Shown here: piece after piece, positions 20,926-39,742 of the stretch
Numbering within the stretch: the first letter of the stretch is position 1
Layout of the letters: the number at the start of each line of letters is the position of its first letter
Source of the DNA: an uncultured Methanosarcinales archaeon
GTDB lineage: Archaea; Nanobdellota; Nanobdellia; Woesearchaeales; GW2011-AR9
Assembly (NCBI GenBank): GCA_964434885.1
Contig: CAYSWQ010000006.1
Span: 1 to 41,681 of the forward strand
Length of the DNA: 41,681 nucleotides
Reading direction: 5' to 3'
Notes under the pieces: model-generated
The model's database searches: none
What the model saw: the letters and a program-made list of their open reading frames with translations, nothing else
What the model was told of the DNA's origin: nothing
Position numbers and translations under genes: made by a program

Positions 20926-21166
20926 GTACATGTTTAGTTAGTTTTGCCAATGGAAGCCCATTTTTTCCGAGAGGGAAAAATCCCTGGGCCGTGCCCCACC
21001 GGCTTAGTCAAATAACTGTGTTGGCAAGAGCACTACCGCCAATGGGGGCACATTTTTGTCCTGTTTGTTAGGGCAAAAATCCCCGTGCCGTGCGTAGTGC
21101 TCTTGCTTTGCCAATAAATTTGACTAAGCCTGCCCCACCATACATTTATATATTCTGGATGAAGCC
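20926..21166. mobile_element. Older, degenerate host element into which MITE-A inserted
   Basis: Right end TATTCTGGATGAAGCC (21151-21166) is identical to the MITE-C TIR; contains core motif 20946-20994; TAAAAAGA at 20918-20925 and 21167-21174. Confidence 0.6.
21001..21130. mobile_element. MITE-A (130 bp), TIR GGCTTAGTCAAAT, 9-bp TSD TGCCCCACC
   Basis: Perfect 13-bp TIR (21001-21013 / 21118-21130); TGCCCCACC at 20992-21000 and 21131-21139; internal long stem. Confidence 0.88.
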
Positions 21167-21191
21167 TAAAAAGAAAACATTTAGAATTATC

Positions 21192-22112
21192 TCAATCTAC
21201 AATTGGATTCATTTGTTTACCAAATATTTTTGATATTCTTTCCATATAATTTTCTAGATTATTTTTAAAATAGGGTTTGTGTTCTTTCTGAATTTTTCCA
21301 ATTACATAATATGCAATTGCCATCATAACAGCATAATCTACATTATTTGGAAGGGGCACAAATAAATTATCGCCCCATTGTTCATTTTGTTTACCAAATG
21401 AAATAAATAACTCTTTAGATGGAACTACTGTAACTGCGTGTTTCATATATTCATATGTTTCAATATCTCTTGCTAATTTCCTACCAAACAATTCAATAAA
21501 TTTAACATTTAATAATCTGATTATTCCTTCAAATTCTTCTGGAACTATTAAAAAAAACTTATCATATTTCCTCAACTGAGAAAAATCCAACCCATCAATG
21601 TTCTCCTTAATAAACTGTAAGATTTCTTGAGGATTTTCTTTAGTATAGCCTAAAATCATCCCCATATAAGTAGAAGTGTTATAAGTATAAGGTTCTCTAT
21701 TTTTAGGAAAAATATATGTCTGATCAACAAAATCTTTTGCTTCAGCATCAATATTATTAGTAATCAAAGTGATTGGTTTATTCAATTTCTTTACTTTTTG
21801 TGCAATAATTGGTGCATGTTTACCACCTGATGCTGAAATAATAACAACTCCATCGATTGCTTCAATACCTAATTTCTTTTCTATATTAGATTCGTCTGCA
21901 AATACTGCATCTTTCTTCTCAAAAATAATTTTTCCAGTTGCTGCTGCATTACCACTACCCACTACCAAAGGTCTTTTGTAATGAATTTTCATTTCTGGAA
22001 CTTTTGTTTGAATAAATAATTCTAACGCAGCTAAAACACAATCATCTAAATCAGGAATATTATCAAGTGTAAAATTGTTCATAATTTCAATCTTTTTCAT
22101 AACTTCTGCCAT
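21192..22112 (-). CDS. SIS-fold sugar isomerase-like protein (possible divergent PGI/PMI)
   Basis: LVVGSGNA, IIISASGG, ITLITNN, then a second SIS-like half (KFIELF...HA); lies in the sugar cluster. Confidence 0.6.
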   Translation of the reverse strand: MAEVMKKIEIMNNFTLDNIPDLDDCVLAALELFIQTKVPEMKIHYKRPLVVGSGNAAATGKIIFEKKDAVFADESNIEKKLGIEAIDGVVIISASGGKHAPIIAQKVKKLNKPITLITNNIDAEAKDFVDQTYIFPKNREPYTYNTSTYMGMILGYTKENPQEILQFIKENIDGLDFSQLRKYDKFFLIVPEEFEGIIRLLNVKFIELFGRKLARDIETYEYMKHAVTVVPSKELFISFGKQNEQWGDNLFVPLPNNVDYAVMMAIAYYVIGKIQKEHKPYFKNNLENYMERISKIFGKQMNPIVD

Positions 22113-22169
22113 TATAAAAATAATTAATTGTAAAGAAGTTTAAATTTGTTGTGATTGATTAAAACATAA

Positions 22170-23873
22170 CTATTTTTCCAACAAACTTAAAGTCTGACCT
22201 GCATTCAACCTCGGAGTATAATAACCAATATAATCTCCTCCTTTAAGCAAATACTTTTTCACTTCAGCAGAAGTTAAATTCTTATCCATTGACAACATCA
22301 AACCAACTACACCAGAAACCATCGGTACTGCCATGGAAGTACCTGAACTAAAACAATAAACATCTGTCCCACAAATACTTAAAATCATTTCCCCTGGAGC
22401 TAAAATATCTACCCATGAACCATGATTAGAAAAAGAAGAAGGTTCATCATTGTTATCTGTAGAACCAACTGCAATTACTGAATCGTAGGCTGCCGGATAA
22501 TTCTTTTGACTTAACCCATCATTACCTGCTGCTGCAATAAAAACTATTCCTTTTTTACTCAAAATTTTAAAAAACCTATCTTCGTATTCAGAATATTTAG
22601 TTTTTCCTAAACTCATACTTATTACTCTCGCCCCTTGAGAAATTGCATATACTACTGCTCTCAATAATGTTGGACTATCTGTACCTCCTTCTTCATCTAA
22701 AGCCCTAATTCCCAAAATTTTACATTGTGGACAGATTCCTGCTATCCCAAAATGATCATTAGTTTGTGCTGCCACCACTCCAGCCACATGCGAACCATGA
22801 ATCTCTTGTTTAATCTTTGGACTAATATCTCTATCTCCTTCTACAAAATCATAATTTTGATAAAACAACAAATTTGGAGTTAGTTCAGGATTTGAAAAAA
22901 TACCTTGGTCAATTACTGCAATAACCGAACCAGAACTAGCCAAATCCCAAGCTGATTCAATATCAATATCTGCCCCAATTGTTCCAAAAAATCTTCCATT
23001 ATTCTTCAAATACCATTGGTATTTGTAAAAAGGATCATTTACTTTTCGCGATGGTTTTCTAACTAACTTATGAATCAAATTATAACTAAAATGAGGATAA
23101 CTGATTGAATTCAAACTAACACTCTCTACAAAATCATATTCTAACAATTTTTTTCGAATCTCTCGATAACTTATAGAAGTATTAAGAACAATTTTTTCAT
23201 CATAAACCATCTTTCCCAAAACCTCTTTCATCTCAAAACTAAACAACCTACTACGACTAATTAATCCAAATTTATTCAAAGTCGAATTATAGGAAGAATC
23301 ATTTTTTATTTCTCGCTTGTAACTTACAATAAATTCTCCAGTTACAAATGATTTATTTCCAATTTTATTTAAATCACCCAAAACAAATTCTCGCCCTTCT
23401 AAATTAAATTTCGGATTTTTTAATTTACTAACTTCATTTTTTTTAACTAAAATTTGATATTTATCAATTTGTTTACTTTGGTCTTGAAAAGACAATTTGG
23501 TTTTTAGTCCAACTTCCACCAAGTAAGATTCTGACCTCTCCACTACTTTAACTTGCAAAGGCAATTTAACTTCTACTTGTAATCCATAATAAGAAACCAA
23601 ATCAAAACATTCTTTCAAACTTAATTTCAAATACTGATTTAAACCAAATTTGTCTACTCCTACCTTACTTACGGCTTGTTTAATTTTAGGACGAAAACAA
23701 TTTTCCATTGTTGAAGTAAAAGAAGTAGCTAATGTATCAATTGTCATCAAAGGAGGAGATTCTACACTCTTTGTCTTAACTCCAACATAAATCGCTAAAC
23801 TAAAAGCAAACAATATCACCATCCCTAGAATAATAAAAGCAGTTACTTGTCCTCTTTTTTTTAAACAACTCAT
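22170..23873 (-). CDS. Subtilisin-like S8 protease with class III (pilin-like) signal peptide
   Basis: KKRGQ followed by a hydrophobic helix; triad AVIDQG, HGSHVAG, SGTSMA; oxyanion AAGN. Confidence 0.92.
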   Translation of the reverse strand: MSCLKKRGQVTAFIILGMVILFAFSLAIYVGVKTKSVESPPLMTIDTLATSFTSTMENCFRPKIKQAVSKVGVDKFGLNQYLKLSLKECFDLVSYYGLQVEVKLPLQVKVVERSESYLVEVGLKTKLSFQDQSKQIDKYQILVKKNEVSKLKNPKFNLEGREFVLGDLNKIGNKSFVTGEFIVSYKREIKNDSSYNSTLNKFGLISRSRLFSFEMKEVLGKMVYDEKIVLNTSISYREIRKKLLEYDFVESVSLNSISYPHFSYNLIHKLVRKPSRKVNDPFYKYQWYLKNNGRFFGTIGADIDIESAWDLASSGSVIAVIDQGIFSNPELTPNLLFYQNYDFVEGDRDISPKIKQEIHGSHVAGVVAAQTNDHFGIAGICPQCKILGIRALDEEGGTDSPTLLRAVVYAISQGARVISMSLGKTKYSEYEDRFFKILSKKGIVFIAAAGNDGLSQKNYPAAYDSVIAVGSTDNNDEPSSFSNHGSWVDILAPGEMILSICGTDVYCFSSGTSMAVPMVSGVVGLMLSMDKNLTSAEVKKYLLKGGDYIGYYTPRLNAGQTLSLLEK

Positions 23874-24464
23874 CTATTTCCTCTTTTTGTACAATACAAA
23901 ACCAACAACTACAATCAAAACCAATAAACCAATTCCTATCAAAACCCATCTCACAAAATTTGTTCCAGCCACTTTTTGATTTACTTTTTTCAATTCTTGT
24001 TGTTCCCATTTTTTATTTTGATTTTTAGTAATATTCTGTGGTACTTTCTTACTTAAATCACTAACATCAATGGTTAGAATTTTTTCAACATTCTCATCAA
24101 AAATTTGAATCTCTTTGGCAGTCTCAGAATATGGAAGATAAACAGTAGTTTTTGATTTATTCAAAACTATTATACCTCCACTATTTATTTTTCCTGTTTT
24201 CTCATCGATTCCATCCCATAAAATAATATTGGGAAAACTAAAAAAAGTTTCATTCAAAACCTGCCCTTGGTAGTCAACAACTTCTGCCAAATAATCTGCC
24301 CCTAATTCTTCAATTTCTTTTGAAAATGGTTCTACATTTACCGAAACATATGAAACATTACTTTGGTCATAATGCAGTTCAATCTTGTAATATTGATTTA
24401 TTTCAGCAAGGGAAAAAGTAACTAAAAATACCAATACCATCAGCCAAATAATTAAATATTTCAT
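23874..24464 (-). CDS. Exported protein with C-terminal membrane anchor
   Basis: Signal peptide, beta-rich body, C-terminal TM and KKRK. Confidence 0.75.
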   Translation of the reverse strand: MKYLIIWLMVLVFLVTFSLAEINQYYKIELHYDQSNVSYVSVNVEPFSKEIEELGADYLAEVVDYQGQVLNETFFSFPNIILWDGIDEKTGKINSGGIIVLNKSKTTVYLPYSETAKEIQIFDENVEKILTIDVSDLSKKVPQNITKNQNKKWEQQELKKVNQKVAGTNFVRWVLIGIGLLVLIVVVGFVLYKKRK

Positions 24465-24465
24465 T

Positions 24466-26679
24466 TTAACCCACCATAATTTTTTTGTAATCTTTCTGTT
24501 CTATTATTCCTTCTTCCCTAAGCAATTCCAATGCATCTTTATATCTCTTGGCCCAATTCTGAGCAACTTGGGGTGTCATTTTTTCCTTTGACCCTTTAAA
24601 TAAAGGTTTACCCATTTTCTGTCGATAAAATTGACTATTGGGATCCATCCACTCAACATATGATGGGTGAAAACCATTAGCAATACTTTCAACAAATGTG
24701 GCAGTATATTCATACACATTATTACAACCATATGCTCGAGTACAACCAAATCTAGCGTCACTTTCTTTATCTGACCATTCAACAGATGTACTACTCCCTT
24801 CACGAGGAGCTAAATTTTTACCCAATTTATCTCCAATAATTCTTCTGATTTTGTCATTAAATGTTTCTTGGATTAATTTTGCCCTACTACTTGATCTATC
24901 TTTTTGGTAATGAGTAATTTTATTCTCTCTAGCCAACTGCAATAATTCATTTTCTTCCTTTTTTGTTAATTGAACTCGCCAACCTGCACGAGATTTAAGT
25001 TTAATTTTATTATTTTTGACATCAATCAAAACAGATGCTAAATCTTTCTTAAACATCCATTTTTTCATTTTTTGTTTAAATTTAATCGCCATTCTTTTTT
25101 CTTTCTTTTCAATAGAGAAATGATATGTATGAACTGCTTCATGATATAATGTACTAAACTCTAGATTTTCACTCAAAAAAATCTTCTGATCTTTCTGTCT
25201 TGCACACGCGTCAGCCTTCATACCACTACACCCCCAATCTTTCTTTGGTCCAACCCAAATACCTTTAACTTCTTTCTTTAATTTATCTGGCAAATTTTTA
25301 AAAGTATCAATCACCAAACTTAGTTTAGTGGTATCTCCAGAATAACTATTGATTCCAACTTCTTTAGCCCACGCAGAAAGATAATTAATAAAAATTCTAT
25401 TTTCCTTTAAGGTTTCAAGACTACAGGTTTTACATTCTACTTTATCTGGAGAAATTTTTTCTGGAACAATGGCTAAATTATTATTTTTATCAAAAATAAT
25501 CCTCTCTTTCTCATTTTTTGAACCCAATAAATCGTTATTCTTTTTATCTAAAAAACGCAAAACCATCGGAATACTATTTGGACGTTTTTCAATAGGTAAA
25601 TGGCCAACACCTGTCTTTAACCCATAGTCAACGCGCTTATTTTCAAAAAGAACTTGATGTTGGCCATTATTCAATTGAATTAATAATTTTCCATCTATAT
25701 TTGGTTTAACAATTACTTCTGGAGAAAATTTTAATCTTTTATTTATTGTCAATTTTCCATTAACAATCTCAAATGAAGTAAGATCTTGGTCGTCCATCTT
25801 GAAATATCCATTTCCTGGCTTGAATTTCATTTCTAAAAAATGATCTCTTTCTTTCTTATCAACATATGCATGAAACTTACTTGTTCCAAAAGAAATATAA
25901 TTTCCCGAATGTTCTTTCCCATCAAAATGAATTTCTGTTTTTAGTTTCCATGATTGTATTTTAATACCATTAATTTCCGCTTTCATTTTACTAAGAACGA
26001 AAATTTTTCCTTGATCAAAATGTAAATCTCCTTTAACAGTATTGCCCAAATAATTTAGTTTTAGATCCCTTGTAATTATAAACACTTTATCTTTTTTTGG
26101 AATATCAATATTTTTTGAAACACTACCTAATTGATATAATTTAATATTGCCTTCATTATCAATTTCAAAAAAATATCCTTTATAACCAAGATGAGATAAT
26201 GTAGCTTTTCCTTTATTTCCAGAGGTCGCCTGCAAAACTCCATTCTTGATCATAGCACCTTTACCAAAACTAGAAATTCTCCGATTATATTTTTTTTCAA
26301 TTGCTAATTTAGCTTTTTTCTCCCCAAAATCCTTAACTAAATTATCGCTCTTCTCCAAAAGCTTTCCTTTAGCCAAAGTAGCACTAGTCAAACTCTTTTT
26401 CTGTCCAGATGACAAAGAAGAAAACCTTGATTCCAATACATTAACTGGAATATCATTCACTCTTTCTTTAGGAATGTTGCTTAACTCCACTTTCTTCCAA
26501 GCTTCAACACTAATTGTACCATAATCTCCTTTACTCCAATCAAATGAATCAGGATTATTTGAATTATAAATTTTAGATAATTTGAATTCCACATCAGTAG
26601 TAGATTGAGTAATTTTTCCCATTCCAAAACTGATTAAAAAAATGAATACTATTCCCCAACAGATTATTTTCTTATTCAT
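24466..26679 (-). CDS. Large exported protein with C-terminal HExxH zincin-like domain
   Basis: Signal peptide; YHEAVH; downstream RAYG...YEYTATFVE as a possible third ligand. Confidence 0.65.
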   Translation of the reverse strand: MNKKIICWGIVFIFLISFGMGKITQSTTDVEFKLSKIYNSNNPDSFDWSKGDYGTISVEAWKKVELSNIPKERVNDIPVNVLESRFSSLSSGQKKSLTSATLAKGKLLEKSDNLVKDFGEKKAKLAIEKKYNRRISSFGKGAMIKNGVLQATSGNKGKATLSHLGYKGYFFEIDNEGNIKLYQLGSVSKNIDIPKKDKVFIITRDLKLNYLGNTVKGDLHFDQGKIFVLSKMKAEINGIKIQSWKLKTEIHFDGKEHSGNYISFGTSKFHAYVDKKERDHFLEMKFKPGNGYFKMDDQDLTSFEIVNGKLTINKRLKFSPEVIVKPNIDGKLLIQLNNGQHQVLFENKRVDYGLKTGVGHLPIEKRPNSIPMVLRFLDKKNNDLLGSKNEKERIIFDKNNNLAIVPEKISPDKVECKTCSLETLKENRIFINYLSAWAKEVGINSYSGDTTKLSLVIDTFKNLPDKLKKEVKGIWVGPKKDWGCSGMKADACARQKDQKIFLSENLEFSTLYHEAVHTYHFSIEKKEKRMAIKFKQKMKKWMFKKDLASVLIDVKNNKIKLKSRAGWRVQLTKKEENELLQLARENKITHYQKDRSSSRAKLIQETFNDKIRRIIGDKLGKNLAPREGSSTSVEWSDKESDARFGCTRAYGCNNVYEYTATFVESIANGFHPSYVEWMDPNSQFYRQKMGKPLFKGSKEKMTPQVAQNWAKRYKDALELLREEGIIEQKDYKKIMVG

Positions 26680-27493
26680 TTGTTATATTTTCAATTAAAA
26701 ACTCTTTACTTTCACTTCGGTTTCCCCAATCATACTGGTTCACAAACTCGTAATAATAATCTTTTTTCTTAACTTTAACTTTCTCATCAATCACTACAAA
26801 CAACATCGTATTATTATCTGGACTCATTTCCACCCTTAAATCATTGTCAATCGCTAATTTAGTTAAACAACTAAGACAGATTGAATCATTCTTCTTTTCT
26901 TGTTCTTGCATAAATAAATCAATGGTTTTATGTACTGCTTGTAATCGAGCTGAAACTTTAGCTTCAAACAAAGTTAATTCTTTTCCCAATGTTCCTTTAA
27001 CAAAATACAAAGGTAAAGTAACTTTAAAACTAACTGACTTTTTACTAAGTTTGGTTTTGGTCTTCATCTTCCCTTGTTCAATCCGATAACCTTGTTGTTG
27101 AAAAGATTTAAAATTTCGTAAACAAAAGAATAAATTATCTTCTAAATACAAAGATAATTGTCTTTCTAGTTCTTCTCGAGAAATAACTTTGTTTTTCTTT
27201 TCATAAAAATAATAAGGTAACATAAACTCTGAATCAAAAACTTTCGGCAATTGATAATATCCTCCATGTTTACCAATATACACCAAAGCTTCTTCTCCAG
27301 TTTGTTGAATACATTTCTCAACATAATTTTGAATATTACTACCTATTTGAATCCCTTGAAATGTTTTTTCTTTTTCTAATGAGGTCTCTTCTGCAACATA
27401 ATTTTTAGAAATAAAAATAAGACTTGCCACCAATAATAAAACTATTACTCCAACTATCAAAAAAACCGAAACTTGTCCTCTTTTTTTAAACAT
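26672..27493 (-). CDS. Class III signal-peptide (pilin-like) surface protein
   Basis: KKRGQVSVFLIVGVIVLL; IQNYVEKC and GKHGGYY motifs. Confidence 0.8.
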   Translation of the reverse strand: MFKKRGQVSVFLIVGVIVLLLVASLIFISKNYVAEETSLEKEKTFQGIQIGSNIQNYVEKCIQQTGEEALVYIGKHGGYYQLPKVFDSEFMLPYYFYEKKNKVISREELERQLSLYLEDNLFFCLRNFKSFQQQGYRIEQGKMKTKTKLSKKSVSFKVTLPLYFVKGTLGKELTLFEAKVSARLQAVHKTIDLFMQEQEKKNDSICLSCLTKLAIDNDLRVEMSPDNNTMLFVVIDEKVKVKKKDYYYEFVNQYDWGNRSESKEFLIENITNE

Positions 27494-27532
27494 TTAAAGA
27501 TGATTATTTTAGGGTTTATTAATATTACTCAC

Positions 27533-28063
27533 TCAATTAGGCTGCTTCAATAATTCCAATAATTTATTCCCAAACTCTTCTGCTGCCTGTGGACCATTAG
27601 CAGTCACAATCCTTCCATCAACAACTACTGGTTCATCAACAAACTCTGCTCCATTTTTCTCCAAAACTGCCTGCTGCTTTCCATCTTCATTCCAAACAGT
27701 AGCTTTTTTCCCTTCCAACACCCCAGCATAAGCTAAAATCGTTGGTGCAATACAAATCGCCCCCAAAACCTTTTCACGATTCACTGCTTCTTGCGCCGTC
27801 AAATGTGCTTGTACATCTTGTTGATATTTATATGCACCAGGACCCCCTACAAAAACAACCCCTTCATAATCAGAAACATTAACTTCATCAATACTAATTG
27901 TCGCTTCTACTTCTAATCCAAAAGCCCCCTTACATTTACCAACTTCCTTCGAACAAATCACAAGTTCATAACTAGCTTCTTCCAAAATCTTCTTAGGAGC
28001 ACCAAATTCATGATCTTGAAACCCTTCTTGTGCAATAATAAATAATATTTTCATATAGTTCAC
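27533..28063 (-). CDS. DJ-1/PfpI family protein
   Basis: GFQDHEF, FVGGPGA, GAICIAP, IVTANGP. Confidence 0.93.
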   Translation of the reverse strand: MNYMKILFIIAQEGFQDHEFGAPKKILEEASYELVICSKEVGKCKGAFGLEVEATISIDEVNVSDYEGVVFVGGPGAYKYQQDVQAHLTAQEAVNREKVLGAICIAPTILAYAGVLEGKKATVWNEDGKQQAVLEKNGAEFVDEPVVVDGRIVTANGPQAAEEFGNKLLELLKQPN

Positions 28064-28064
28064 C

Positions 28065-28268
28065 TCATATCTTTTCTTCTTTAATCAACTTAACAAAATG
28101 TTCAAAACTACGATCATAACTCTTCTCTGCATCATCTGGAAAACAACAAGCTGGTAACTCTCGATTAGCTAAATGATATTTCAAACATTCACAACAAATC
28201 CCTTTTTTAGAACAACCACCATAACTACAATTACACAGTTCTTTGTTTACTTCTTTTTTACATTCCAT
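28065..28268 (-). CDS. Small Cys-rich protein (DUF6485-like)
   Basis: [21 protein letters not shown]...LPACCF...YDRS. Confidence 0.8.
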
Positions 28269-28351
28269 TTTAAATCATCAATAAAGATTATTATTTATAA
28301 TTTTCCAAAAAAACCAACAACTTTATTTACCTGAAAATATTCCTTCTTAAA

Positions 28352-29347
28352 ATGCTTACAGATATTTTAGTCTTGCTCGGAGGAGTAATCTCAATTTTAG
28401 TTTTAGCAGATATCATTGTTAGAGAATCATTAAGATTAGCTAAACACTTTAATTGGTCTGGAACTTTCGTCGGACTCACTATCTTAAGTATAGGAACTAG
28501 TATTCCTGAAATAATGGCTGCAGTCATTGGGAGTATAAATATTCTCAAAGACCCTAGTCAAATTAACACCCTTTCTGGTTTAATCATTGGAACTAATGTT
28601 GGTTCTGATATCTTTCAACAAAGTTTTGTTTTAGCTTTAGTTGGGCTAATAGGAACTATTGTGGTTATAAAAAAAAACTTAGTCCCTGAAGTTGGTGCTT
28701 TAATTGGTGGGGCAATTTTAATGTGGATCATGACAATTGGAGGGTTCATCAATCGTTTTGAAGGTTTTCTGATGTTAGCAGCTTACATTGCCTACTTAAT
28801 CTATTTAAAGAAAAAACAAGACCATGATCACACCGTTAAACATGTTACTGAAAAGAAATTTAAAACAAGTAAGTTATCTAGAAAAAGAATTCTTGTAGAA
28901 ATTATTATCATCTTAGTCGGTTTCATAATTATGGGTCTCACAGCCAATTTAGTCATAAATACCTCTGAAAAACTAATTTCTACTTTTAATATGAGTGCTT
29001 CTTTATTTGGAGTATTACTTTTAGGTGTTGCTTCTGCTTTACCAGAATTAACTACTGCTTTAATCGGAGTGTTAAAACATAAAAAAGGTGTTTCCGCCGG
29101 AGTTTTAATTGGTAGTAATGTTACTAACCCACTATTTGGTTTAGGATTAGGGGCTTTAATCTCTGGTTACGCCGTACCAAAAGTAACTATGTTTTATGAT
29201 CTCCCAGCAAAAATTGGTATCGCTGCATTAATCTTCTACTTCCTTCACGGCAATGAAAAACTAGACAAATGGCAAGCAGTAATATTAATTGGAATCTTCG
29301 TCATATATCTAATAGCTAGAATGAAATTATTCCCGGTAGATTTTTAA
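28352..29347 (+). CDS. Na+/Ca2+ exchanger (CaCA) family antiporter
   Basis: Alpha repeats GTSIPE...GTNVGSD and ASALPE...GVLIGSN. Confidence 0.92.
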   Translation: MLTDILVLLGGVISILVLADIIVRESLRLAKHFNWSGTFVGLTILSIGTSIPEIMAAVIGSINILKDPSQINTLSGLIIGTNVGSDIFQQSFVLALVGLIGTIVVIKKNLVPEVGALIGGAILMWIMTIGGFINRFEGFLMLAAYIAYLIYLKKKQDHDHTVKHVTEKKFKTSKLSRKRILVEIIIILVGFIIMGLTANLVINTSEKLISTFNMSASLFGVLLLGVASALPELTTALIGVLKHKKGVSAGVLIGSNVTNPLFGLGLGALISGYAVPKVTMFYDLPAKIGIAALIFYFLHGNEKLDKWQAVILIGIFVIYLIARMKLFPVDF

Positions 29348-29616
29348 GCCACATTCTTATAGTCATGATGTAAGTTCATTAAAGTGTGAGCCTGTAAAAC
29401 CTGCATGGCTTTTCTTTCATTACTCCTTACTCCATTAAATTTGGGTAACGCTCCGGATTTACGCACTACAATTCTTCCTTCCGCTAAAGCTTTTTCATAA
29501 ATTTGTATTATTGCTGCTAAAATCTTCTTATCTTCATTATCTTCGTAAAAAATAGGCCCATAAGAACTTTTTAAACAACCTGTAATTTTTTTTAATTTTC
29601 TTGGTATTCTACCCAT
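29344..29616 (-). CDS. Hypothetical protein
   Basis: ORF downstream of gdh; ATG at 29616 is more plausible than the TTG at 29655. Confidence 0.5.
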   Translation of the reverse strand: MGRIPRKLKKITGCLKSSYGPIFYEDNEDKKILAAIIQIYEKALAEGRIVVRKSGALPKFNGVRSNERKAMQVLQAHTLMNLHHDYKNVA

Positions 29617-29668
29617 ATAAAGTATAAAAATAAAAAAGATTATAATCTTTTCCAAAAAAACAAACCAA

Positions 29669-30880: not shown

Positions 30881-30926
30881 ACTATTTTAGTATTTCAAAA
30901 CTTTATAAATATTTATATTTTTAAGA

Positions 30927-31087
30927 GGCTCTGTAAAATTGCTTTTTAAAGCATCAATTCACGAAGCAGTACTTTGAAAATAACATTGTCTCCGGAGGGG
31001 GTTGTCCCATCCGGGGAGGAGCCGGATTTGAAAAATACATCCAAAGAGCGTAGTCCGATGCTTTAATTTTAGCATTTCTACGGAGCC
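30927..31087. mobile_element. MITE-B (161 bp), imperfect TIR GGCTC(T/C)GTA..., 9-bp TSD TTTTTAAGA
   Basis: Left GGCTCTGTAAAATTGCT versus right reverse complement GGCTCCGTAGAAATGCT; TTTTTAAGA at 30918-30926 and 31088-31096. Confidence 0.82.
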
Positions 31088-31132
31088 TTTTTAAGAAATA
31101 AATAAGAAGAAAAAACAATAAAAAAATAAAAA

Positions 31133-32617
31133 TTACTTAACAACTAAATTACCCTTCAAAGAACCTCCTTGAACAGTTCCATACTTATCACAGTAAGAAC
31201 CACATTTAAACTCAAAAGTTCCAGCTTTACTAGCAGTAAAAGTAACTGTTTCCGAAGCACCTTTCTTAACTTCTTTATTCACATTGAAATCAGATAGAAC
31301 AAATTTGAAGTCAATATCTGCACTACTTAAAGTTACTTTCACAGTATCTCCTTTGTTAACAGTTAATGAGTTAGCATCAAATCTCCATTTCTTTGCTACC
31401 ACATTAAATGTTTTAGTTGCTGCTGCAGGTTTAGTTACAGTTGTTCCAGCAGTGTTAGCTGTAGTTCCAGTAGTAGTTGTAGTTCCAGCTGCTGCTTTCA
31501 AAGCTGCTTCAATCTCTTGTTTAAATACAGAGTAAGGTTGAGCTCCAGAAATCATCTTACCATTGATAAAGAAAGCTGGAGTTCCAGAAACACCTGCTTT
31601 TTGACCATCAGCAAAATCTTTCTCTACTTCTGCTTTGTGTTTATTGGTATCTACACAAGTATTAAATTTAGTTGTATCCAATCCTAAATCTTTAGCCCAC
31701 TTTTTATAATTAGCAGCACTTAAACTAGCTTGGTTCTTAAACAACAAATCGTGGTATTCCCAATATTTTCCTTGATCTCCTGCACATTCTGCTGCCTCTG
31801 CCGCAGGTTTAGCTTGGTCATGAAAACCTAATGGGAAATCTCTAAAAACATATTTTACTTTTCCAGTATCAACATATTCTTTAAGAATCTGTGCATATGC
31901 TCCATCTACAAATCTCTTACAGAAAGGACATTGGTATTCAGAAAATTCAATAATTGTTACTGGTGCATCTTTCTTACCTTTCATTGCATCATCATCTACA
32001 GAAACATCAACTTTCTTAGCTTGAGCTGTTCCAGTTGTAGTTCCAGCATCTTGAGTTGGCAATTTCTTAGTTGTATCAAATCCTTGTGGAAAAAACAATT
32101 TCCCGTCTTTAGTAATGTAAGAATCAACAGTTTGTCCAGCCACATCAACAGTTACTTGATACATACTTCCAACATCTTTAGAAGATTTCACAGTTGCAGT
32201 AAAAGGTGCTTGCAACAAATTAGTGTTAATATAATCTAAAGCTGTCTTTTCTGCTTGTGCTTTAGTTAATGAAGTCCCAGTAGCTGCCCCAGTAATTGTG
32301 GAAGCTCCAGTAAAATCAAAACCATTTGTATAAACTGCAGCCACTAACAAAATCAACAATATTCCTGAAATAATTTTCCACGTTGAACCTGGTTTAGATT
32401 CTTCATCGTCATCATCAAAATTCCAAGAATTATCTGGTTCAGCAGCAGGAGTTGTTTTCTCAGCTACTTTTTCTTCTGTTTTTACTTCGGTTTTACCATT
32501 ATCCATTATCTCTTCTGCATCATTTGTTTTTTCTACAACTTCTTCATTTTCATATTCTACAGAATTATCTTTCACATTCTCTTTTTTTTCAACATCATCT
32601 AATTGTTTTTGATCCAT
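31133..32617 (-). CDS. Membrane-anchored DsbA-family thiol oxidoreductase fused to a cupredoxin-like domain
   Basis: FSEYQCPFC, FRDFPL, GVSGTPAFFING; C-terminal FDANSLTVNKGDTV...AGTFEFKCGSYC. Confidence 0.9.
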   Translation of the reverse strand: MDQKQLDDVEKKENVKDNSVEYENEEVVEKTNDAEEIMDNGKTEVKTEEKVAEKTTPAAEPDNSWNFDDDDEESKPGSTWKIISGILLILLVAAVYTNGFDFTGASTITGAATGTSLTKAQAEKTALDYINTNLLQAPFTATVKSSKDVGSMYQVTVDVAGQTVDSYITKDGKLFFPQGFDTTKKLPTQDAGTTTGTAQAKKVDVSVDDDAMKGKKDAPVTIIEFSEYQCPFCKRFVDGAYAQILKEYVDTGKVKYVFRDFPLGFHDQAKPAAEAAECAGDQGKYWEYHDLLFKNQASLSAANYKKWAKDLGLDTTKFNTCVDTNKHKAEVEKDFADGQKAGVSGTPAFFINGKMISGAQPYSVFKQEIEAALKAAAGTTTTTGTTANTAGTTVTKPAAATKTFNVVAKKWRFDANSLTVNKGDTVKVTLSSADIDFKFVLSDFNVNKEVKKGASETVTFTASKAGTFEFKCGSYCDKYGTVQGGSLKGNLVVK

Positions 32618-32945
32618 TATTAAATCACCTATCTAATATTATTACTTTCTCTCATAGGAAATCATTAATTTATAAATATTTAGGTAATCTACTAGATAAA
32701 ATGTTAAATTTAGTCATCAACTTGAGACGAAAAAATAAATTATTACACAAGAATTAAATACTTAAGTAAAAAAAATAAAAATTATAGGAATTGAAAAAAA
32801 ATTCAAAAAACAAACTAAAAAACCAGAGGAAGTTAAACCACTCGCTTCTTGGATCATAAAAGAAAGACTAGATAAAGGCAAAGGAGTATACATTCCTGCT
32901 TTGGGAGTAGAAATTTATAAAAAAGAAATAAAATATATTAATTAA

Positions 32946-33374
32946 TCACTTCTTCTTTCTTTTCACAGTTTTCTTCTTAACTACTTTCTTTTTTACTTTT
33001 TTCTTCACTGCTTTCTTCACTGTTTTTTTCTTTGGTTTACAAGACGCACACCCTTTCTTTACTACTTTATTAATCTCTTTTTCTACAAACTTAGTTATAT
33101 TCTTCCGAGATTTATCTGCTTCACTGTAAATACTCTTCACTAGCTTTCTACCTTCTTTTTCATTAATATGTCCTTTCTTAACTAAATCTTTAGCAAACCT
33201 TTCTGCTTTATCTTTAGCAAAAGAAGCCAAACCAACTCCAATCAATAATCCTTTTTTCATTAACTCTTTTTTCATTTTTAACACCTCTAAATTTTTTGGT
33301 TTTTTAACAAAACCATAAACATCATAACCTAACTTAACCGTTCCTGCAACTTTAATTATTTTTCTTAAAACCAT
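32946..33374 (-). CDS. Phasin-like protein with Lys-rich tail
   Basis: KKGLLIGVGLASFAKDKAERFAKDLVKKGHINEKEGRKLV (phasin-like); KK-rich C-terminus; internal SD-preceded ATG at 33275. Confidence 0.7.
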   Translation of the reverse strand: MVLRKIIKVAGTVKLGYDVYGFVKKPKNLEVLKMKKELMKKGLLIGVGLASFAKDKAERFAKDLVKKGHINEKEGRKLVKSIYSEADKSRKNITKFVEKEINKVVKKGCASCKPKKKTVKKAVKKKVKKKVVKKKTVKRKKK

Positions 33375-33385
33375 TTTCTAACAAT

Positions 33386-35044
33386 TTATCTTGCTTTTTT
33401 AACAAAAATTGTTCTTTTCACTAACCACAACCCTAATATCGCAGCAATACTAAAACCGGCAACATAAACATAAGTCAAAGCACTAGTTTGCATAATTAAA
33501 CTAGAACCTACAATTAATGCTGCTACAATCAATCCCAAAGCTAAATTACCAGATGATCTTTCAATCTCTAAAGTCAAACTATTAATATCTGCATCTTCTA
33601 AATCTACATTCAATCTAAATTTCTTAGCTTTTTCCAAAATCTCTTTTGCTGTATCTGGGAAATTCTCAGCTAAATCTTTATACTTATTTATGTTTGTTTG
33701 AGTTCGATCAATAACTTCCTTTGCAAAAAATTTGTAATTCATTAATTTATTCAAAATTACTTTAGATTCTTTTTCAAAATCAAAATCTGGCTGATAACGT
33801 AATGCAATCCCTTCAATAATTCCGACTGTCTTACCATATAAAACAAAATCTTCCGGAATATGTAAATGATGTTTATTTACTAAAGACAATGTTTCTCTCA
33901 AAATCGGACCCACTTGAATATTTGACAAAGACGAACATTGTAAATGCTCGAAAATATCTTTAATTTCTTCTGTAAATGCATCCACATCAATATCACTCCG
34001 TGGATTCATCTTTAAAAATATTTTAGCTGTTTTCTCTGGATCATTATTAATAAAACTTTGAAATAAATCTAAAGCATGTCTTTTCAATTTCTTATCAAAA
34101 TGACCAATAATACCAAAATCAAGAAAGGCCAATTTTCCATCTTTTAATACTAATATATTTCCAGGATGAGGATCTGCATGGAAAAAACCATCAATAAAAA
34201 CTTGTTTCAACATCACATAATAACCATTCCTGATTACTTTTTTCAAATTAATCTTAGCTTCCTTAATTCTTTCTGCATCATGTAATGGGATTCCTTCAAT
34301 AAATTCCATCACTAGGACTTTATCTGTAGAAACATTAGAATAAATTTTTGGAATCTTCAAAACTTTACTATTACGGAAATTCTTAGCAATTCTCTGAGCA
34401 AAACATGCTTCGATCTCAAAATTTAATTCTTTCAAAGTCCATCTTTCAAATTCATGGATAATTCCACGCAAATGATAATTTTTTAAGTTTGGAAAATGTT
34501 CACTCAACAGTTCTGCAATTTTATACATTAATTCAATATCTTCCAGCATCCGCTTCCTAATTTCTGGCCTTTGTACTTTAACTGCCACAATATTCTTTCC
34601 CATCTTCGCTTTGTAAACTTGAGAAATTGAAGCCGAAGCAACTGGTTTCTTAGAAAAAGAATTAAATAATTTGTCAATTGGTTTTCCCAATTCAGTCTCA
34701 ATGATCTTCCTAGCAACTGGAAAAGGAAATTGGGGCACTTCATCCTGCATTTTTTCAAACTCAACAATAAATTCCGGAGGAACTAAATCTGGCCTTAATG
34801 ATAACATCTGTCCAAATTTAATAAAACTTGGACCTAATTTCTCAAAAGCTCTTCTCAACCTTACTGGATGACTATTCTCTTTCTCCCTCGCAATTCTCGC
34901 CTTAATTCTTTCTTTAAATGGCAAATGGGGATGTAATTTAAGTTTAGAAATAAAATAGCCAAATTCTTCTTCAAAAAAAACCTTTAACAACTCCTCTAAT
35001 CTTTCTCGGTGTTTTTGGTTTTTAATAATATCATATAAAGTCAT
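33386..35044 (-). CDS. ABC1/UbiB/AarF-family atypical kinase
   Basis: LGPSFIKFGQMLS, ASASISQVY, VAVKVQRP, FFHADPHPGN, LDFG; C-terminal TMs. Confidence 0.95.
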   Translation of the reverse strand: MTLYDIIKNQKHRERLEELLKVFFEEEFGYFISKLKLHPHLPFKERIKARIAREKENSHPVRLRRAFEKLGPSFIKFGQMLSLRPDLVPPEFIVEFEKMQDEVPQFPFPVARKIIETELGKPIDKLFNSFSKKPVASASISQVYKAKMGKNIVAVKVQRPEIRKRMLEDIELMYKIAELLSEHFPNLKNYHLRGIIHEFERWTLKELNFEIEACFAQRIAKNFRNSKVLKIPKIYSNVSTDKVLVMEFIEGIPLHDAERIKEAKINLKKVIRNGYYVMLKQVFIDGFFHADPHPGNILVLKDGKLAFLDFGIIGHFDKKLKRHALDLFQSFINNDPEKTAKIFLKMNPRSDIDVDAFTEEIKDIFEHLQCSSLSNIQVGPILRETLSLVNKHHLHIPEDFVLYGKTVGIIEGIALRYQPDFDFEKESKVILNKLMNYKFFAKEVIDRTQTNINKYKDLAENFPDTAKEILEKAKKFRLNVDLEDADINSLTLEIERSSGNLALGLIVAALIVGSSLIMQTSALTYVYVAGFSIAAILGLWLVKRTIFVKKAR

Positions 35045-35082
35045 TTTCCCCTTTTTAATACTTATTGACTAAGTAAGATTTA

Positions 35083-35805
35083 TTATTTTTTAAAGGTTGT
35101 TGTTTTACTAGCTAAATTCTTCTTAATCAATCTAATTATCTCTGATTCATGACCCGCACCAACCACCGCTACAATTTTACTTTCAGGTTCTTTAAACATT
35201 AAATTAGAAAGATTTTTCGCTAAAACTTCATTCCTTTCTTTAACCAAAACTTTATGAATATTTGGATATCTTTTCTTCATTTGTAAAATTAATTTTTTAA
35301 TCAACTTCTCTTCTGGAACTTTAGTTAAATCAAAACCCATCAACCCATATTTCTTCATTTCTCTTTTCTTAAACAATAACCCTCTTATCAAATCCCCAAC
35401 CACTCTAAATTTTTCTTTCCAAGTAAATTCTTGTGAAAATCTTCGTAAAGTAATCTCAATCGGTTGATCAACCAAAGCAATCTTCAAATTTCTAGCCCTA
35501 GCTAAATCAATTGCTACTTTCATCTCTGAACCTGGTTCCATTTTCACTATTTTTCCTAACTTTTTTTGAATATATGCACCAATTAAAGCAAAAAGATACC
35601 CTTTTACTCCAATTTTCAATATACTAGAAAAACCAACTTTCCTTTTTTTCTTCTCCATCAAAGCCACAAATCGAGTTTGATCTAACTCCACTGCCACAAT
35701 CTCAGGATGAATCACTTCAATAGCCTTAGTAACTTCTTGCACACTCTGCTCAGAAATATGCGAAGTCCCAACTAAAGTTAAATTTTGAAATATTTTCATA
35801 AACAA
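35083..35805 (-). CDS. TraB/PrgY/GumN-family protein
   Basis: VGTSHIS, VAVELD, GSEM, ITLRR, ERN, VVGAGH. Confidence 0.9.
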   Translation of the reverse strand: MFMKIFQNLTLVGTSHISEQSVQEVTKAIEVIHPEIVAVELDQTRFVALMEKKKRKVGFSSILKIGVKGYLFALIGAYIQKKLGKIVKMEPGSEMKVAIDLARARNLKIALVDQPIEITLRRFSQEFTWKEKFRVVGDLIRGLLFKKREMKKYGLMGFDLTKVPEEKLIKKLILQMKKRYPNIHKVLVKERNEVLAKNLSNLMFKEPESKIVAVVGAGHESEIIRLIKKNLASKTTTFKK

Positions 35806-35884
35806 CTAAAAGAACTAATTGGATATAAATGTTCTGCTTTTAAACCACAACAAAAAATATAAATCTAATCACTTTTTTGTAATT

Positions 35885-36442
35885 ATGGATTTAAGGAAAA
35901 AAATAATTGTTGAAATTATTAATCTAATTAAAGAAAAACATGAAAAAGAATTTTATGGACATTTACAATTTGTAGCAAAAATAGGATTGCACCTATCCAA
36001 AAAATATAAAACTGATCCATTGGTAATAGAAATCTCTTGCTTACTTCATGATTTAGGTCGAAGACAAGAAAATGAAAATGAAAACCATGCTCAGGCCAGT
36101 TATCGTTTAGTAAAACCATTCTTAGAAAAGTTCCAACTATCTAATCAACAAAAAAAATTAATCTTACAAAGTATACTTAATCATCAAGGTCAAGAAATTC
36201 CAAAATCAATAGAAGAAGCAATTGTTATTACTGCAGATGCTTCTTCCAAAGTTCTTTATCATGAAGCTTTCATGTTGCTCTGTAAAAAAAATAATTATCA
36301 AGATCGGTTAAAATGGGGGTTAAAATATCTAGAAAAAGGATTTCATTCCATTGTCTTCCCTGATTTTAAGGAGAAAGTTAGACCCAAATATGAATATTTA
36401 AAAGAAATCTATTCTTTAGTTAACCAAAATGATTACATTTAA
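35885..36442 (+). CDS. HD-domain phosphohydrolase
   Basis: H...LLHDLG...NH...ILNH...ITAD; ATG at 35885 preferred over the TTG at 35819. Confidence 0.85.
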   Translation: MDLRKKIIVEIINLIKEKHEKEFYGHLQFVAKIGLHLSKKYKTDPLVIEISCLLHDLGRRQENENENHAQASYRLVKPFLEKFQLSNQQKKLILQSILNHQGQEIPKSIEEAIVITADASSKVLYHEAFMLLCKKNNYQDRLKWGLKYLEKGFHSIVFPDFKEKVRPKYEYLKEIYSLVNQNDYI

Positions 36443-36560
36443 TAATTATTCTGAGGATTATTAGTTCTCAAAAAATTCATTTTCGCAACCATTTTATAGG
36501 AATTCATATTTTCATATAAAAACAAACATATTTTGTTAAAAAATTAATCGAGGTGGAAAA

Positions 36561-36794
36561 ATGTTTGGTCACAAAGATGGTAAAATTGGAATTTTAATTA
36601 CTAATACACTGGTTGATGTGGGGGCTGTTAAAGCAGAGCTAAATGAGGCATTAGAATCTGAAAAATATTCAAAAGAAGAACTTAGAGCTATTATTAAACA
36701 CAACGTAAAAAGATTAAATGAAGCTTATGAAAAATTAACAAAAATTGTTGATGTTGAAAGAAAAATAATAGATATTTTCAAAAAAGAATTTTAA
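36561..36794 (+). CDS. Small helical hypothetical protein
   Basis: GAGGTG SD upstream; 77-aa coiled-coil-like ORF. Confidence 0.7.
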   Translation: MFGHKDGKIGILITNTLVDVGAVKAELNEALESEKYSKEELRAIIKHNVKRLNEAYEKLTKIVDVERKIIDIFKKEF

Positions 36795-36811
36795 TTTTTT
36801 TCTATTATTTC

Positions 36812-37162
36812 GGCTTCATCCAGAATAACACATTTCTGTATACTGTGTGCATGAAAATAAACAGAGATTTATTTTCAGCACTGAAAACAAATAGTTTTTT
36901 GTTTTCATGTGCCGGCGCGGGGATTTTGTGAGTAGCGCAAGAAGGGATGCTCTGCTTCCTTCTGCGCTGAAGGGAAAACTATTCCTTCATGCGCCAAAGG
37001 AGGCACATTTTTGTGAGAAATGAAAAAACTATTTCATTTATCATTAGAAACGCGAAGTCGTTTCTTTATGGGTTTACGAACAAAAATCCAGGTGCCATGC
37101 CCTACTCACAAAATGCGCCTCTTGCAGGCAGTATACAGATTTACTCTATTCTGGATGAAGCC
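36812..37162. mobile_element. MITE-C (351 bp), perfect 16-bp TIR GGCTTCATCCAGAATA, 9-bp TSD (T/C)ATTATTTC
   Basis: TIRs 36812-36827 / 37147-37162; flanks TATTATTTC 36803-36811 and CATTATTTC 37163-37171; second stem TCTGTATACTG/CAGTATACAGA. Confidence 0.88.
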
Positions 37163-37206
37163 CATTATTTCAAAACATTTTTATAAAACAATAAAATAAT
37201 CCTAAC

Positions 37207-37485
37207 ATGAAATTAACTCCAACAGAATATAGGCTCTTAAAAGAAAGAGTTATCCGCGAATACAAAACTAAACACGAAAAAAGAAAAAAGAACAATTCTG
37301 CTTACCTTAAATTCAAAAAAAAATTAAAACGAGTAATGCCCTTAAACCTTTTAGTTGGTTTTGCTGCTTGTGTAGTTCTAATTTACATCAACGGTTGGAG
37401 AATGTTAGGATATCTTATGCTCTCTGGAATAATCTGGCTAACTTTAATCACTACTTTAGTTTCTGTTTTTCTAGAATCTAAATAA
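37207..37485 (+). CDS. Small 2-TM membrane protein
   Basis: Basic N-terminus and two hydrophobic helices. Confidence 0.7.
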   Translation: MKLTPTEYRLLKERVIREYKTKHEKRKKNNSAYLKFKKKLKRVMPLNLLVGFAACVVLIYINGWRMLGYLMLSGIIWLTLITTLVSVFLESK

Positions 37486-37488
37486 CCA

Positions 37489-38310
37489 TCATTTAAGATT
37501 TAGGTCTTTTCTTACCTTATCATAATATTTATGATCTCCCAAATGAAACTCAATATAGATAGAATTCTTCACTTTCAAATCAACTATTTCAAACAAATCC
37601 ATCAACTTTAACGGCATCGTCTCTGTTTTACCCAATATAAAAAAACCTCTTTGATTCAAACTATTATAAAATTTAAGAATCAATTTTTCTTGAATCGCAG
37701 AAGATAAATATATTCCCACATTACGGAAACTAATCAAATCAAAATGAGTTGGAAATTCATCATTTAACAAATCATGTTGCAAAAATCTAATTTTGTCTTT
37801 CAATTCTTCATTTACTTTCACTTTTTTCTCATCAAACACGAAATTATGTTGAAATTTATTCGGAACACCACCAACTCTTTGAATATGGTACTCTCCTTTT
37901 TTAGCTTTCAACAAAGCTTTTTCACTCATATCTGTCCCAGTAACAGAATAAACAAAATTATCCAAATCGGAACCAAACACTGCTTTCAACAAAATACTTA
38001 AACTATATGTTTCTTCACCAGCCGCACAACCTGCACTCCAAAAACGAATTATCTTCGCATTCTTTTTTTCCTTTTCTTTCTTAATTTGAGGAAGAATATT
38101 TTTTTCTAAAACATCAAACATTTCTCTATCACGAAAAAATTCACTGGTTTGAATAGAAAGTAATTCCTTTAATTCTCTTACTTCTTGACCAAAATTATTT
38201 TGAAATGCTTCAACCTTCTTCTCGAGAAAAACACTTTTATAACCACTAAGATCAACACCAAAATTTTGATTTATTTCTTCTAAAACAAATTTTTTATCAG
38301 AACTAAGCAT
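37489..38310 (-). CDS. cheR: CheR-type protein-glutamate O-methyltransferase
   Basis: TSEFFRD, WSAGCAAGEETYSL, GTDMS, HDLL, FDLISFRNVGIY, LGKTE. Confidence 0.92.
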   Translation of the reverse strand: MLSSDKKFVLEEINQNFGVDLSGYKSVFLEKKVEAFQNNFGQEVRELKELLSIQTSEFFRDREMFDVLEKNILPQIKKEKEKKNAKIIRFWSAGCAAGEETYSLSILLKAVFGSDLDNFVYSVTGTDMSEKALLKAKKGEYHIQRVGGVPNKFQHNFVFDEKKVKVNEELKDKIRFLQHDLLNDEFPTHFDLISFRNVGIYLSSAIQEKLILKFYNSLNQRGFFILGKTETMPLKLMDLFEIVDLKVKNSIYIEFHLGDHKYYDKVRKDLNLK

Positions 38311-38641
38311 TTTTTTCTTGCAAAACTCCTTGCAAGGCTCTTCTTAAAGAATCATAATACACTAACAACTCCGACAAAATTTTCTCAGTAATTATCCCTT
38401 CATTTTCAGCCGTGCATTTAGTAACAATATAATTGATCTTACAAGCAAGATAAGCCAAAAGATATTTTTTTGCTAATAAAGAATCCCCTTCTAAACCATG
38501 GGAAGAAATTAACAAACTATTAATTGCCTCTTTATCAATATTATTAATTTTGATTTTTTCTAAAGCCAAGCCAATCCTTTGAAGATTTTTTTGAGACTCC
38601 TCCAAAAACATATTCATTAATTCAATATTAATTTCTCCCAT
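38303..38641 (-). CDS. Stand-alone Hpt (CheA P1-like) domain protein
   Basis: MFLEESQKNL...AINSLLISSHGLEGDS resembles the CheA P1 FLEE...lfRxxHtLKG motif. Confidence 0.72.
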   Translation of the reverse strand: MGEINIELMNMFLEESQKNLQRIGLALEKIKINNIDKEAINSLLISSHGLEGDSLLAKKYLLAYLACKINYIVTKCTAENEGIITEKILSELLVYYDSLRRALQGVLQEKNA

Positions 38642-38692
38642 CTTCTAATTAACTCCAATCTTAACTCCATATTTAATCCAACTAAACATGAA

Positions 38693-39067
38693 TCATTTCA
38701 TCAACAATATTTTCTTAATCTTATTTACTAAAAAATCTCCATCAAAAGGTTTTTGGATAAATTCTAACACCCCTAATTTTTCTAAATCCTTATAATCATC
38801 TTTACTCAATAGAGCCACCGTAAAAAAAACTAAACGAGAATTTTTAGTTTTGGGATCTTTTCTCACTTCTTTACAAAACTCCTTACCATTCATTCCTGGC
38901 ATGAAAAAATCAACCAACACCAAATCTGCTTTTTTCTTTTTCAGTTCTTCTAAACCTGCTTTAGCATTCAAAACAGTCCTAACCTCAAATCCTTCTTTTG
39001 TCAATAAATCAGAAACAACTTTACCAATGTATTTTTCATCATCCACAACCAATATATTTTTTGCCAT
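38693..39067 (-). CDS. Single-domain response regulator
   Basis: ILVVDDE, LVDFFMPGMNG, FT, QKPF. Confidence 0.93.
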   Translation of the reverse strand: MAKNILVVDDEKYIGKVVSDLLTKEGFEVRTVLNAKAGLEELKKKKADLVLVDFFMPGMNGKEFCKEVRKDPKTKNSRLVFFTVALLSKDDYKDLEKLGVLEFIQKPFDGDFLVNKIKKILLMK

Positions 39068-39152
39068 CTTAAAACCCCTTCATAGTTAAATATAATTTTC
39101 TCAATTCAATATCTAAGCAAGTTTATCGAAGTTTAAATAATTTACTATTAAA

Positions 39153-39287
39153 GGTAAGTATTTAGTTGGTTATACCATGAAAACCGTCCCCGCCAAATGA
39201 GGCCCATTTTTACCCCTGGTTTTAGGGGGTAAAAATCACTGGGCCGTGCGGGATGGTTTTCTGGTCATTGTTAACTAAATACATACT
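39153..39287. mobile_element. MITE-D (about 135 bp) with GTA(A/T)GTATTTAGTT inverted ends
   Basis: Left GGTAAGTATTTAGTT, right reverse complement AGTATGTATTTAGTT; direct repeat TACTATTAAA at 39143-39152 and 39284-39293 (overlaps the right end, so the boundary is uncertain); carries the core motif. Confidence 0.72.
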
Positions 39288-39376
39288 ATTAAATACTAAC
39301 ACATTAAAGAAATATTTATATAGGTAACCAATTTATTCCATTTACTAATTAAATATTATATAAATGAGGTGCAAAA

Positions 39377-39739: not shown

Positions 39740-39742
39740 ACA

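Follow-up and report, generated by a model that had tools for sequence, protein, structure and literature searches.

The window considered here is a stretch of 41,681 nucleotides, contig CAYSWQ010000006.1 of assembly GCA_964434885.1, from an archaeon that is filed as an uncultured Methanosarcinales and placed by GTDB within the Woesearchaeales. Within it are found five related motifs, M1 to M5, which are associated with short inverted-repeat elements, and it is well supported that these five motifs represent the central module, or core, of non-autonomous transposons, that is of MITEs (miniature inverted-repeat transposable elements), in a marine Woesearchaeota-type archaeon. An earlier note on this DNA had described them as five copies of one covarying, structured core that is shared by MITE-like elements with different ends. 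A reading of the window sequence agrees with that description for the coordinates and sequence of M1 to M4 on the forward strand, and the two halves of the motif, GCCAAWKGRRGNNCATTTT on the 5' side and AAAATNNNNGNGCCRTGC on the 3' side, are each matched four times in the window where 0.00 matches are expected (100 shuffles). The number of copies needs qualification, in that M1 to M4 are canonical whereas M5 is only a degenerate outer copy which falls below the threshold of the covariance model described below.

The elements that house these cores are inserted into, and built upon, one another (Table 1). The M2 MITE, which is bounded by a perfect 13-nt terminal inverted repeat (21001-21013 and 21118-21130), has its insertion site in the right arm of the M1 element, and a second copy of this MITE is present at a contig end elsewhere in the source genome (C17:1-62). 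The M1 element is itself a chimera, where a left arm of family II and a right arm of family I meet at the core. At position 21046, within the M2 core, the contigs of all four DNA runs have A in place of G, so that the loop conforms again to its GGAG consensus, and these contigs may come from the second M2 copy. The composite that contains M4 and M5 is flanked by ATTATTTC (36804-36811 and 37164-37171), which agrees at eight of nine base pairs when taken as a 9-bp duplication, and it has a paralogue at C28:6800-6979. The neck of M5 doubles as the outer stem of M4. M5 is not recovered by the covariance model at E<=1; a better-kept counterpart on contig C28 is given 27 bits by the model, and the same nested layout is found in C28, at loci L020, L021 and L031, and in the related genomes G053 and G054. 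Contigs from three of the four DNA runs join position 36934 directly to position 36991, which may reflect the C28 paralogue or relatives, and the DNA contigs of the four runs contain no clear presence/absence variant of the elements. The left arm of the composite holds a second extra hairpin of ~60 nt (~36846-36908, with arms at 36850-36878 and 36881-36909), which is absent from the C28 paralogue. The apex of M4 is occupied by a small unrelated repeat (37008-37069) that resembles both window 10282-10341 and C1:30027-30064 of the source genome (~79-84% alike). Finally, the M3 MITE is flanked by TATTAAA at 39146-39152 and 39287-39293, with a 43-nt inverted repeat formed by 39148-39190 and 39250-39292.

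Table 1 Coordinates of the core-bearing elements in the window (first eleven rows) and of IS5-family elements in related genomes (last three rows).
Feature	Position	Strand	Remarks
Left arm of M1 element, TTTAGTTAG arm family (family II)	20926..20945	+	Same arm at C32:8734 and C38:9438
M1 core: GCCAATGGAA / GCCC / neck + GAGA loop / CCCT bulge / GGGC / CGTGC	20946..20994	+	Model 51.7 bits
Left 8-bp target-site duplication GCCCCACC of M2 MITE	20993..21000		Sequence read
M2 MITE, family III, GG..GTCAA termini, 130 bp	21001..21130	+	Core 21038-21093; model 79.7 bits
Right target-site duplication GCCCCACC of M2 MITE	21132..21139		Sequence read
Right arm of M1 element, family I type, ends ..TATTCTGGATGAAGCC	21140..21168	+	Compared with family I right arms, 37135-37162
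Composite family I MITE (M4/M5), 351 bp, termini GGCTTCATCCAGAATA.. / ..TATTCTGGATGAAGCC	36812..37162		43-nt inverted repeat, 36812-36854 / 37120-37162
M5, outer degenerate core, encloses M4	36909..37129	-	Loop 2 nt shorter, GGCAC for GTGC
Extra piece of 56 nt between M5 neck and M4 core	36935..36990		Absent from C28 paralogue
M4, inner canonical core	36993..37100	+	Model 32.5 bits though outside seed
M3 MITE, family II-like termini GTAAGTATTTAGTT / AACTAAATACATAC, extra stem layer	39153..39286	+	Core 39192-39249; model 86.1 bits
IS5-family element (G054)	L170 633-1626		9-bp duplication
IS5-family element (G033)	L174 1153-2148		9-bp duplication
IS5-family element (G053)	L172 464-1383		

The architecture of the core is described in the same way by RNAalifold and by the covariance model (R1), the latter having been built from a seed of 15 copies, with M4 left out, and applied to the source genome after a regular-expression search. 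From the outside inwards there is a variable outer stem, followed by a G-C/C-G clamp and then by an asymmetric internal loop in which 5' CAAWKGA lies opposite 3' GU. The loop leads into a 5-bp helix, GGCNC/GNGCC, in which free variation is confined to the middle pair (AU 19, GC 18, CG 11). Inside this helix the 3' strand is bulged, after which come a closing A-T pair that is invariant and finally a neck and apex that vary without limit yet remain paired. The proposal of a single structured and covarying core is borne out by the alignment fitted with the model (50 matches, 49 distinct), where 95.4% of cells are paired (a displacement of the partners by one to three columns lowers this to 41-54%), and where double changes are seen in 25 of the 27 pairs, a number that is equalled in none of 500 shuffles.

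Some of the finer features that had been ascribed to the core do not survive the comparison of more copies. For two of them the counts come from 91 copies defined by regular expression, among which are about two probable chance matches. The bulge, said always to be 4 nt in length, is so in 74 of the 91 copies, whereas 15 have one of 5 nt and two have one of 3 nt; the expression allowed for 3-5 nt only. A proposed 2-bp long-range pair, which seemed to covary, fits only 30 of the 91. The supposedly constant ATTTT/AAAAT neck is swapped in other genera for other complementary sequences, so that just the closing A-T pair is constant. What is conserved is a set of about 25 core positions, which do not change between genera or between arm families, in copies where almost every position of the neck, apex and arms is different. 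A further recurrent feature is a 24-nt apical module of the ACCC-GAUGGCGAAGCCGUAA-GGGU type (copies at C5:37622, C5:41830, C34:3381, C7:33753, C54:5067 and C9:8716), the internal loop of which we take to resemble the loop-E/sarcin-ricin motif.

The elements that surround the core are 80-350 bp in length and have no coding capacity. From their flanks in many genomes they can be sorted into at least four arm families, each of which has its own terminal repeats and 8-9 bp target duplications, and the claim that one core is common to MITE-like elements with different termini is thereby upheld. Family I has GG..TGTCC.GAATA termini with an inner GTATAC, and a variant of it GGC.C.GTAGAA; family II has GTA.GTATTTAGTT termini, family III GG...TGTCAAGTTA and family IV GTAAGTAATA.GTC. 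Terminal repeats together with direct repeats of 8-9 bp are found, for instance, at L098, L132, L118, L130, L127, L138, L034, L106, L155 and L157, and the duplication is often absent around old copies in the source genome. All the hallmarks of a MITE are present, namely terminal inverted repeats, target duplications, a small noncoding body in multiple copies and an autonomous element that shares the termini. In the copies of families I and II that were compared the asymmetries of the arms keep one constant orientation relative to the core, which means that the whole element has polarity and that the core does not flip within it.

The core does not originate in the insertion sequences whose termini the MITEs share. 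Related genomes carry elements of the IS5 family of insertion sequences, ~1 kb in length, with an open reading frame of 306-329 residues that matches PF01609. The reading frames of three such elements (Table 1) score 140.0, 138.2 and 106.5 bits against NF033579, the IS5 family model, for which the cut-off is 140 bits, and the terminal repeats of these elements are identical to those of the core-bearing MITEs of the GG..TGT type. The core is found in none of the three, nor is either half of the motif, so the suggestion that it might occur within full-length insertion sequences is not sustained. With filters off, the best non-MITE score of the model across seven loci is 14.1 bits (E=0.085). There is, moreover, a family III MITE that does without the core (L169 1262-1403, G054:C111), having a different interior and a 9-bp duplication, GAAAACTAG. 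Because the matching IS5-family elements are without the core, and because a family III MITE can exist without it, the core is considered to be cargo and not the remnant of an insertion sequence, a status that is well supported, and it is the sole part common to all of the arm families. No autonomous element with the MITE termini is found in the source genome, which also contains no long autonomous form with the half-motifs 0.5-5 kb apart; nor, in a by-eye comparison with the model hits, is a long form indicated by the 59 matches that the 5' half has in five genomes rich in copies (reversed-pattern control 0). A fourth intact insertion sequence, at L175 ~200-1860 (G053), has an open reading frame of 505 residues and different termini.

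The search with the covariance model that had been recommended extends the core well beyond the window. In the source genome, G000 (1.07 Mb in 66 contigs), it recovers 17 copies, together with one that is cut at a contig end, and M4 is recovered even though it was kept out of the seed. These copies are 70-88% alike. The three largest contigs, C1, C2 and C3 (243 kb together), hold no copy, while C5 holds three and C6 four. Of 60 further genomes from the GTDB family to which the source belongs, 22 give matches to the model (1-23 each), and of 41 genomes from other families of the order none does. When 185,579 species, each represented by one genome, are scanned with the exact pattern, 69 loci are obtained, 67 of which are in records labelled Woesearchaeota, Nanoarchaeota or archaeon, including three metagenome-assembled genomes filed as uncultured Methanosarcinales; the other two, in an Acidobacteriota metagenome-assembled genome and a Blautia genome, are taken for chance matches. 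Viral contigs were considered as carriers and rejected, as their sole match lies within coding DNA and is judged to be chance.

Identical copies are present in G054, G053 and G039, many of them at contig ends, and they point to recent activity in those genomes. In three cases the same intergenic region is occupied in two genera (M1/L036, C9/L039 and C38/L028), and in these the elements belong to different arm families, which is read as independent insertion and speaks against vertical inheritance of the copies at the shared sites. Upstream of a pfkB-like gene an element is present in G000 and G025 only, among 30 loci scanned.

MITEs are usually seen as decayed insertion sequences that are conserved only at their ends. 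In the present elements the ends differ by family, conservation is highest in a foreign, asymmetric hairpin junction at the centre, and the orientation on the chromosome is nonrandom. The elements resemble the MITEs of IS5-family insertion sequences in that they are short, noncoding, multicopy and intergenic, with matching termini and duplications of 8-9 bp, and the IS903 group of the IS5 family is one that makes 9-bp duplications. They differ from them in the foreign junction, which is better conserved than the arms, and in the range of arm families that have the core, which number at least four and include some whose termini (GTA..) are unrelated. A second point of comparison is provided by Correia/NEMIS of Neisseria and by ERIC, RUP and BOX, which are elements with a whole-length hairpin, a central presumed host-factor site, a modular build and a tendency to nest. 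By that description hairpin potential, centre, modularity and nesting are all alike, and the differences are the archaeal host, the different ends and the different length of the duplication, to which is added that no binding protein or processing enzyme is known for the archaeal elements.

Two known RNA folds can be set aside on geometry. A kink-turn has a 3-nt bulge followed by tandem sheared G.A and A.G pairs, whereas the loop of the core is 5-7 nt long and G22-A23 faces G-U and not G-A. The bulge-helix-bulge of the archaeal splicing endonuclease has two 3-nt bulges on opposite strands with a 4-bp helix between them, and although the topology is similar the core has a 7x2 loop, a 5-bp helix and a bulge that is mostly 4 nt. 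A search of the literature on MITEs and hairpins of Woesearchaeota and DPANN archaea found no description of the core. What is new is the presence of one core in several terminus families, its absence from the matching IS5 elements, the failure of the G-U argument for an RNA strand and the bias in its chromosomal orientation.

This bias is seen when the strand that reads GCCAA is compared with the composition of the surrounding DNA. Pooled over nine genomes, with flanks of 8 kb, the GCCAA strand is the C-rich strand of its surroundings, and so antisense to most genes, in 62 of 82 copies. In the source genome, where the copies lie on 12 contigs, this applies to 17/17 (flanks of +-10 kb), and the other genomes (+-8 kb) range from 5/5 in G012 and 7/7 in G032, through 6/7 in G019, 4/5 in G059 and 5/7 in G016, to 7/12 in G033, 1/2 in G037 and 9/19 in G044. 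When the flanks of the pooled set are shortened to 300 nt, 55 copies are on the C-rich strand and 25 are not, and the bias is larger in the 5' flank than in the 3' flank. Of the pairs of neighbouring copies that share a contig, 20 point the same way and nine in opposite ways. A strong skew goes with the clearest bias. The contigs of G000 have a GC skew of a single sign over tens of kb. The orientation bias implies that the polarity of the element matters, with replication and transcription, and likewise selection and insertion preference, being inseparable as its source.

The idea that the core is a folded functional module is plausible because the loops stay fixed while every helix changes; of the forms that the earlier note had in mind for such a module, the ribozyme and the HUH substrate have gained no support. 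The contrast between the ~25 fixed core positions and the neck, apex and arms around them indicates selection on sequence over and above asymmetry. The elements move as DNA and leave target duplications of 8-9 bp. We suggest that the core would be held by selection that acts on lineages of elements. It would do its work as folded DNA, either as a hairpin on a transiently single strand or as a cruciform, where the two asymmetric loops could allow a putative protein to tell the strands apart. The loops would thereby lend polarity to an otherwise palindromic element, which may help its mobilisation or its retention. That the core works as folded DNA, and in so doing makes the two strands of a palindromic element unequal, is a proposition on which we regard the scales as evenly poised. 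A more ambitious version, which would see in the core an archaeal cis element of a new kind, namely a junction of folded single-stranded DNA with asymmetric loops that are read by a putative protein and that set the orientation of IS5-type MITEs with respect to the strand organisation of the chromosome (replication or predominant transcription), and which would account for the retention of one cargo by unrelated MITE families, is speculative and, taken as a whole, doubtful.

A number of observations weigh against a role as folded DNA. The orientation bias is uneven, being absent in G044 and weak in G033, and as it goes with the coding strand, selection on transcripts would account for it just as well, as would an insertion preference of the transposase unrelated to the core. 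No protein partner of the core has been found. For the GTA.. termini of families II and IV no autonomous partner is identified, and transposases of the PF01609 type do not track the motif: 11 of the 22 genomes with the motif have them, as do 15 of the 38 without it, and they are not found in either G000, with its 17 copies, or G044, with 23 matches. Nor is an internal hairpin known to be required for IS5-type (DDE) transposition. The remaining points concern RNA. The conserved loops are purine-rich, as is also typical of protein-binding RNAs; the GCCAA strand is the more stable one as RNA in 55 of 84 copies and the less stable in 28; and the model-fitted alignment gave 39 G-U against 18 A-C mismatches on that strand.

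These last points lead to the explanation that survives best among the alternatives, in which the MITEs carry the core as a structured module of RNA, for instance a small RNA or a site for protein binding or processing, that acts upon transcription of the element, with the orientation bias arising from selection on transcripts. It is possible, if on the whole unlikely. In its favour the unpaired nucleotides are conserved and every helix has undergone compensatory change, even with flanks as short as +-300 nt the orientation correlates with their coding-strand composition, and the GAGG/GGAGG stretch of the loop resembles, in our reading, a ribosome-binding site. The difference in stability is small, with means of -33.8 kcal/mol for the GCCAA strand and -32.6 kcal/mol for the other, that is 1.2 kcal/mol apart, and it is attributed to the constant loops. 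The excess of G-U pairs, which the earlier note had taken to favour the GCCAA strand, does not outlast a count made without the model, in which the transition mismatches on that strand are 27 of G-U type and 21 of A-C type in the arms and 26 and 30 respectively in the neck; the higher figure is therefore dismissed as a bias of the fit. A transcript of the GCCAA strand would, moreover, be mostly antisense to the neighbouring genes and would need a promoter of its own, and TATA-like words reach a maximum on either side of the element at 51-60 nt upstream, with 30 and 18 of 86 copies having one in that 10-nt bin. Where the neighbouring genes run in tandem, 14 copies of the core are sense and 14 antisense, or 16 and 18 by a second count. 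The notion of a ribozyme or other known RNA family finds no backing in Rfam, which at gathering score gives 0 matches on the window and, on seven copies, a best E-value of 1.2 with bit scores far below gathering, and in this the earlier failure to match the core to a described RNA family is repeated with all Rfam families, self-cleaving ribozymes included.

A second alternative dispenses with sequence-specific function altogether. Central asymmetry stabilises palindromes, and the core could be no more than the middle of one successful MITE chassis, kept by descent, that has acquired new ends by recombination. The M1 element, with its left arm of family II and right arm of family I, would be an instance of such arm swapping at the core, and the density of MITEs in Woesearchaea is very high, at 105 per Mb in one genome according to one study (PMC11602168). 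Swapping of this kind is rare, however, as non-complementary arms are seen in only ~3 of 86 copies (two probable false matches set aside), and a chassis under no sequence selection does not account for the contrast between the fixed core and the changed remainder, which makes this explanation improbable.

It is very improbable, lastly, that the core serves, in folded single-stranded form, as a recombination site of a tyrosine recombinase, as does attC, or as a substrate of an HUH enzyme of the IS200/IS605 or RAYT type, because the ends of the elements are IS5-type and target duplications are made, the copies are scattered between housekeeping genes with no cassette arrays, and the candidate enzymes do not track them. 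The likeness to the attC sites of integrons lies in the conservation of pairing and not of helix sequence, in unpaired bases on one strand that distinguish the strands, in an apex of varying length and in the bias of orientation, whereas the core has no AAC/GTT boxes, reading GCC.. / ..GTGC instead. Five Phage_integrase matches in G000 could be counted for such a site, but across genomes the number of these genes (11 in G012, 10 in G009, three in G044, two in G053 and two in G039) has no relation to the number of copies. With REP/BIME and their RAYT, and with the palindromes of IS200/IS605, the core shares its dispersed intergenic hairpins and their strand-biased orientation, and differs in that the stems are not the same between copies and in that no Y1 transposase accompanies it: Y1_Tnp (PF01797), the TnpB zinc-ribbon and RVT_1 are not found in G000 (a genome 92% complete), and among G000-G036 Y1_Tnp occurs together with the motif in only three genomes and is absent from 10 that are motif-positive. 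Among relatives the presence of the motif is not matched by the counts of Y1_Tnp, DDE_Tnp_1 or Phage_integrase. The five Phage_integrase genes in the 1.07 Mb of G000 are at C33:783-1247, C7:888-1331, C7:3106-3543, C25:7054-7560 and C1:85525-85968, those on C7 being 2 kb apart.

If the core is recognised as a folded structure, whether as DNA or as RNA, it would reveal a new host or transposon factor in DPANN archaea and would show how palindromic elements gain polarity. Should it be read as a folded junction of single-stranded DNA, it would provide an archaeal counterpart to the strand-selective logic of attC and of the ends of IS608, placed on cut-and-paste transposons. The covariance model also has a practical value, in that a large part of the structured repeats that had gone unexplained between the genes of Woesearchaeota can be labelled with it and need then not be mistaken for RNA genes.

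Among the genes of the window, a chemotaxis-type set is found at 37489-40931, in what is a DPANN-type genome of ~1 Mb, and comprises a CheR methyltransferase, two CheY-like receivers and CheX/CheC-like phosphatases. The M3 MITE is located between two divergent CheY-like receiver genes.

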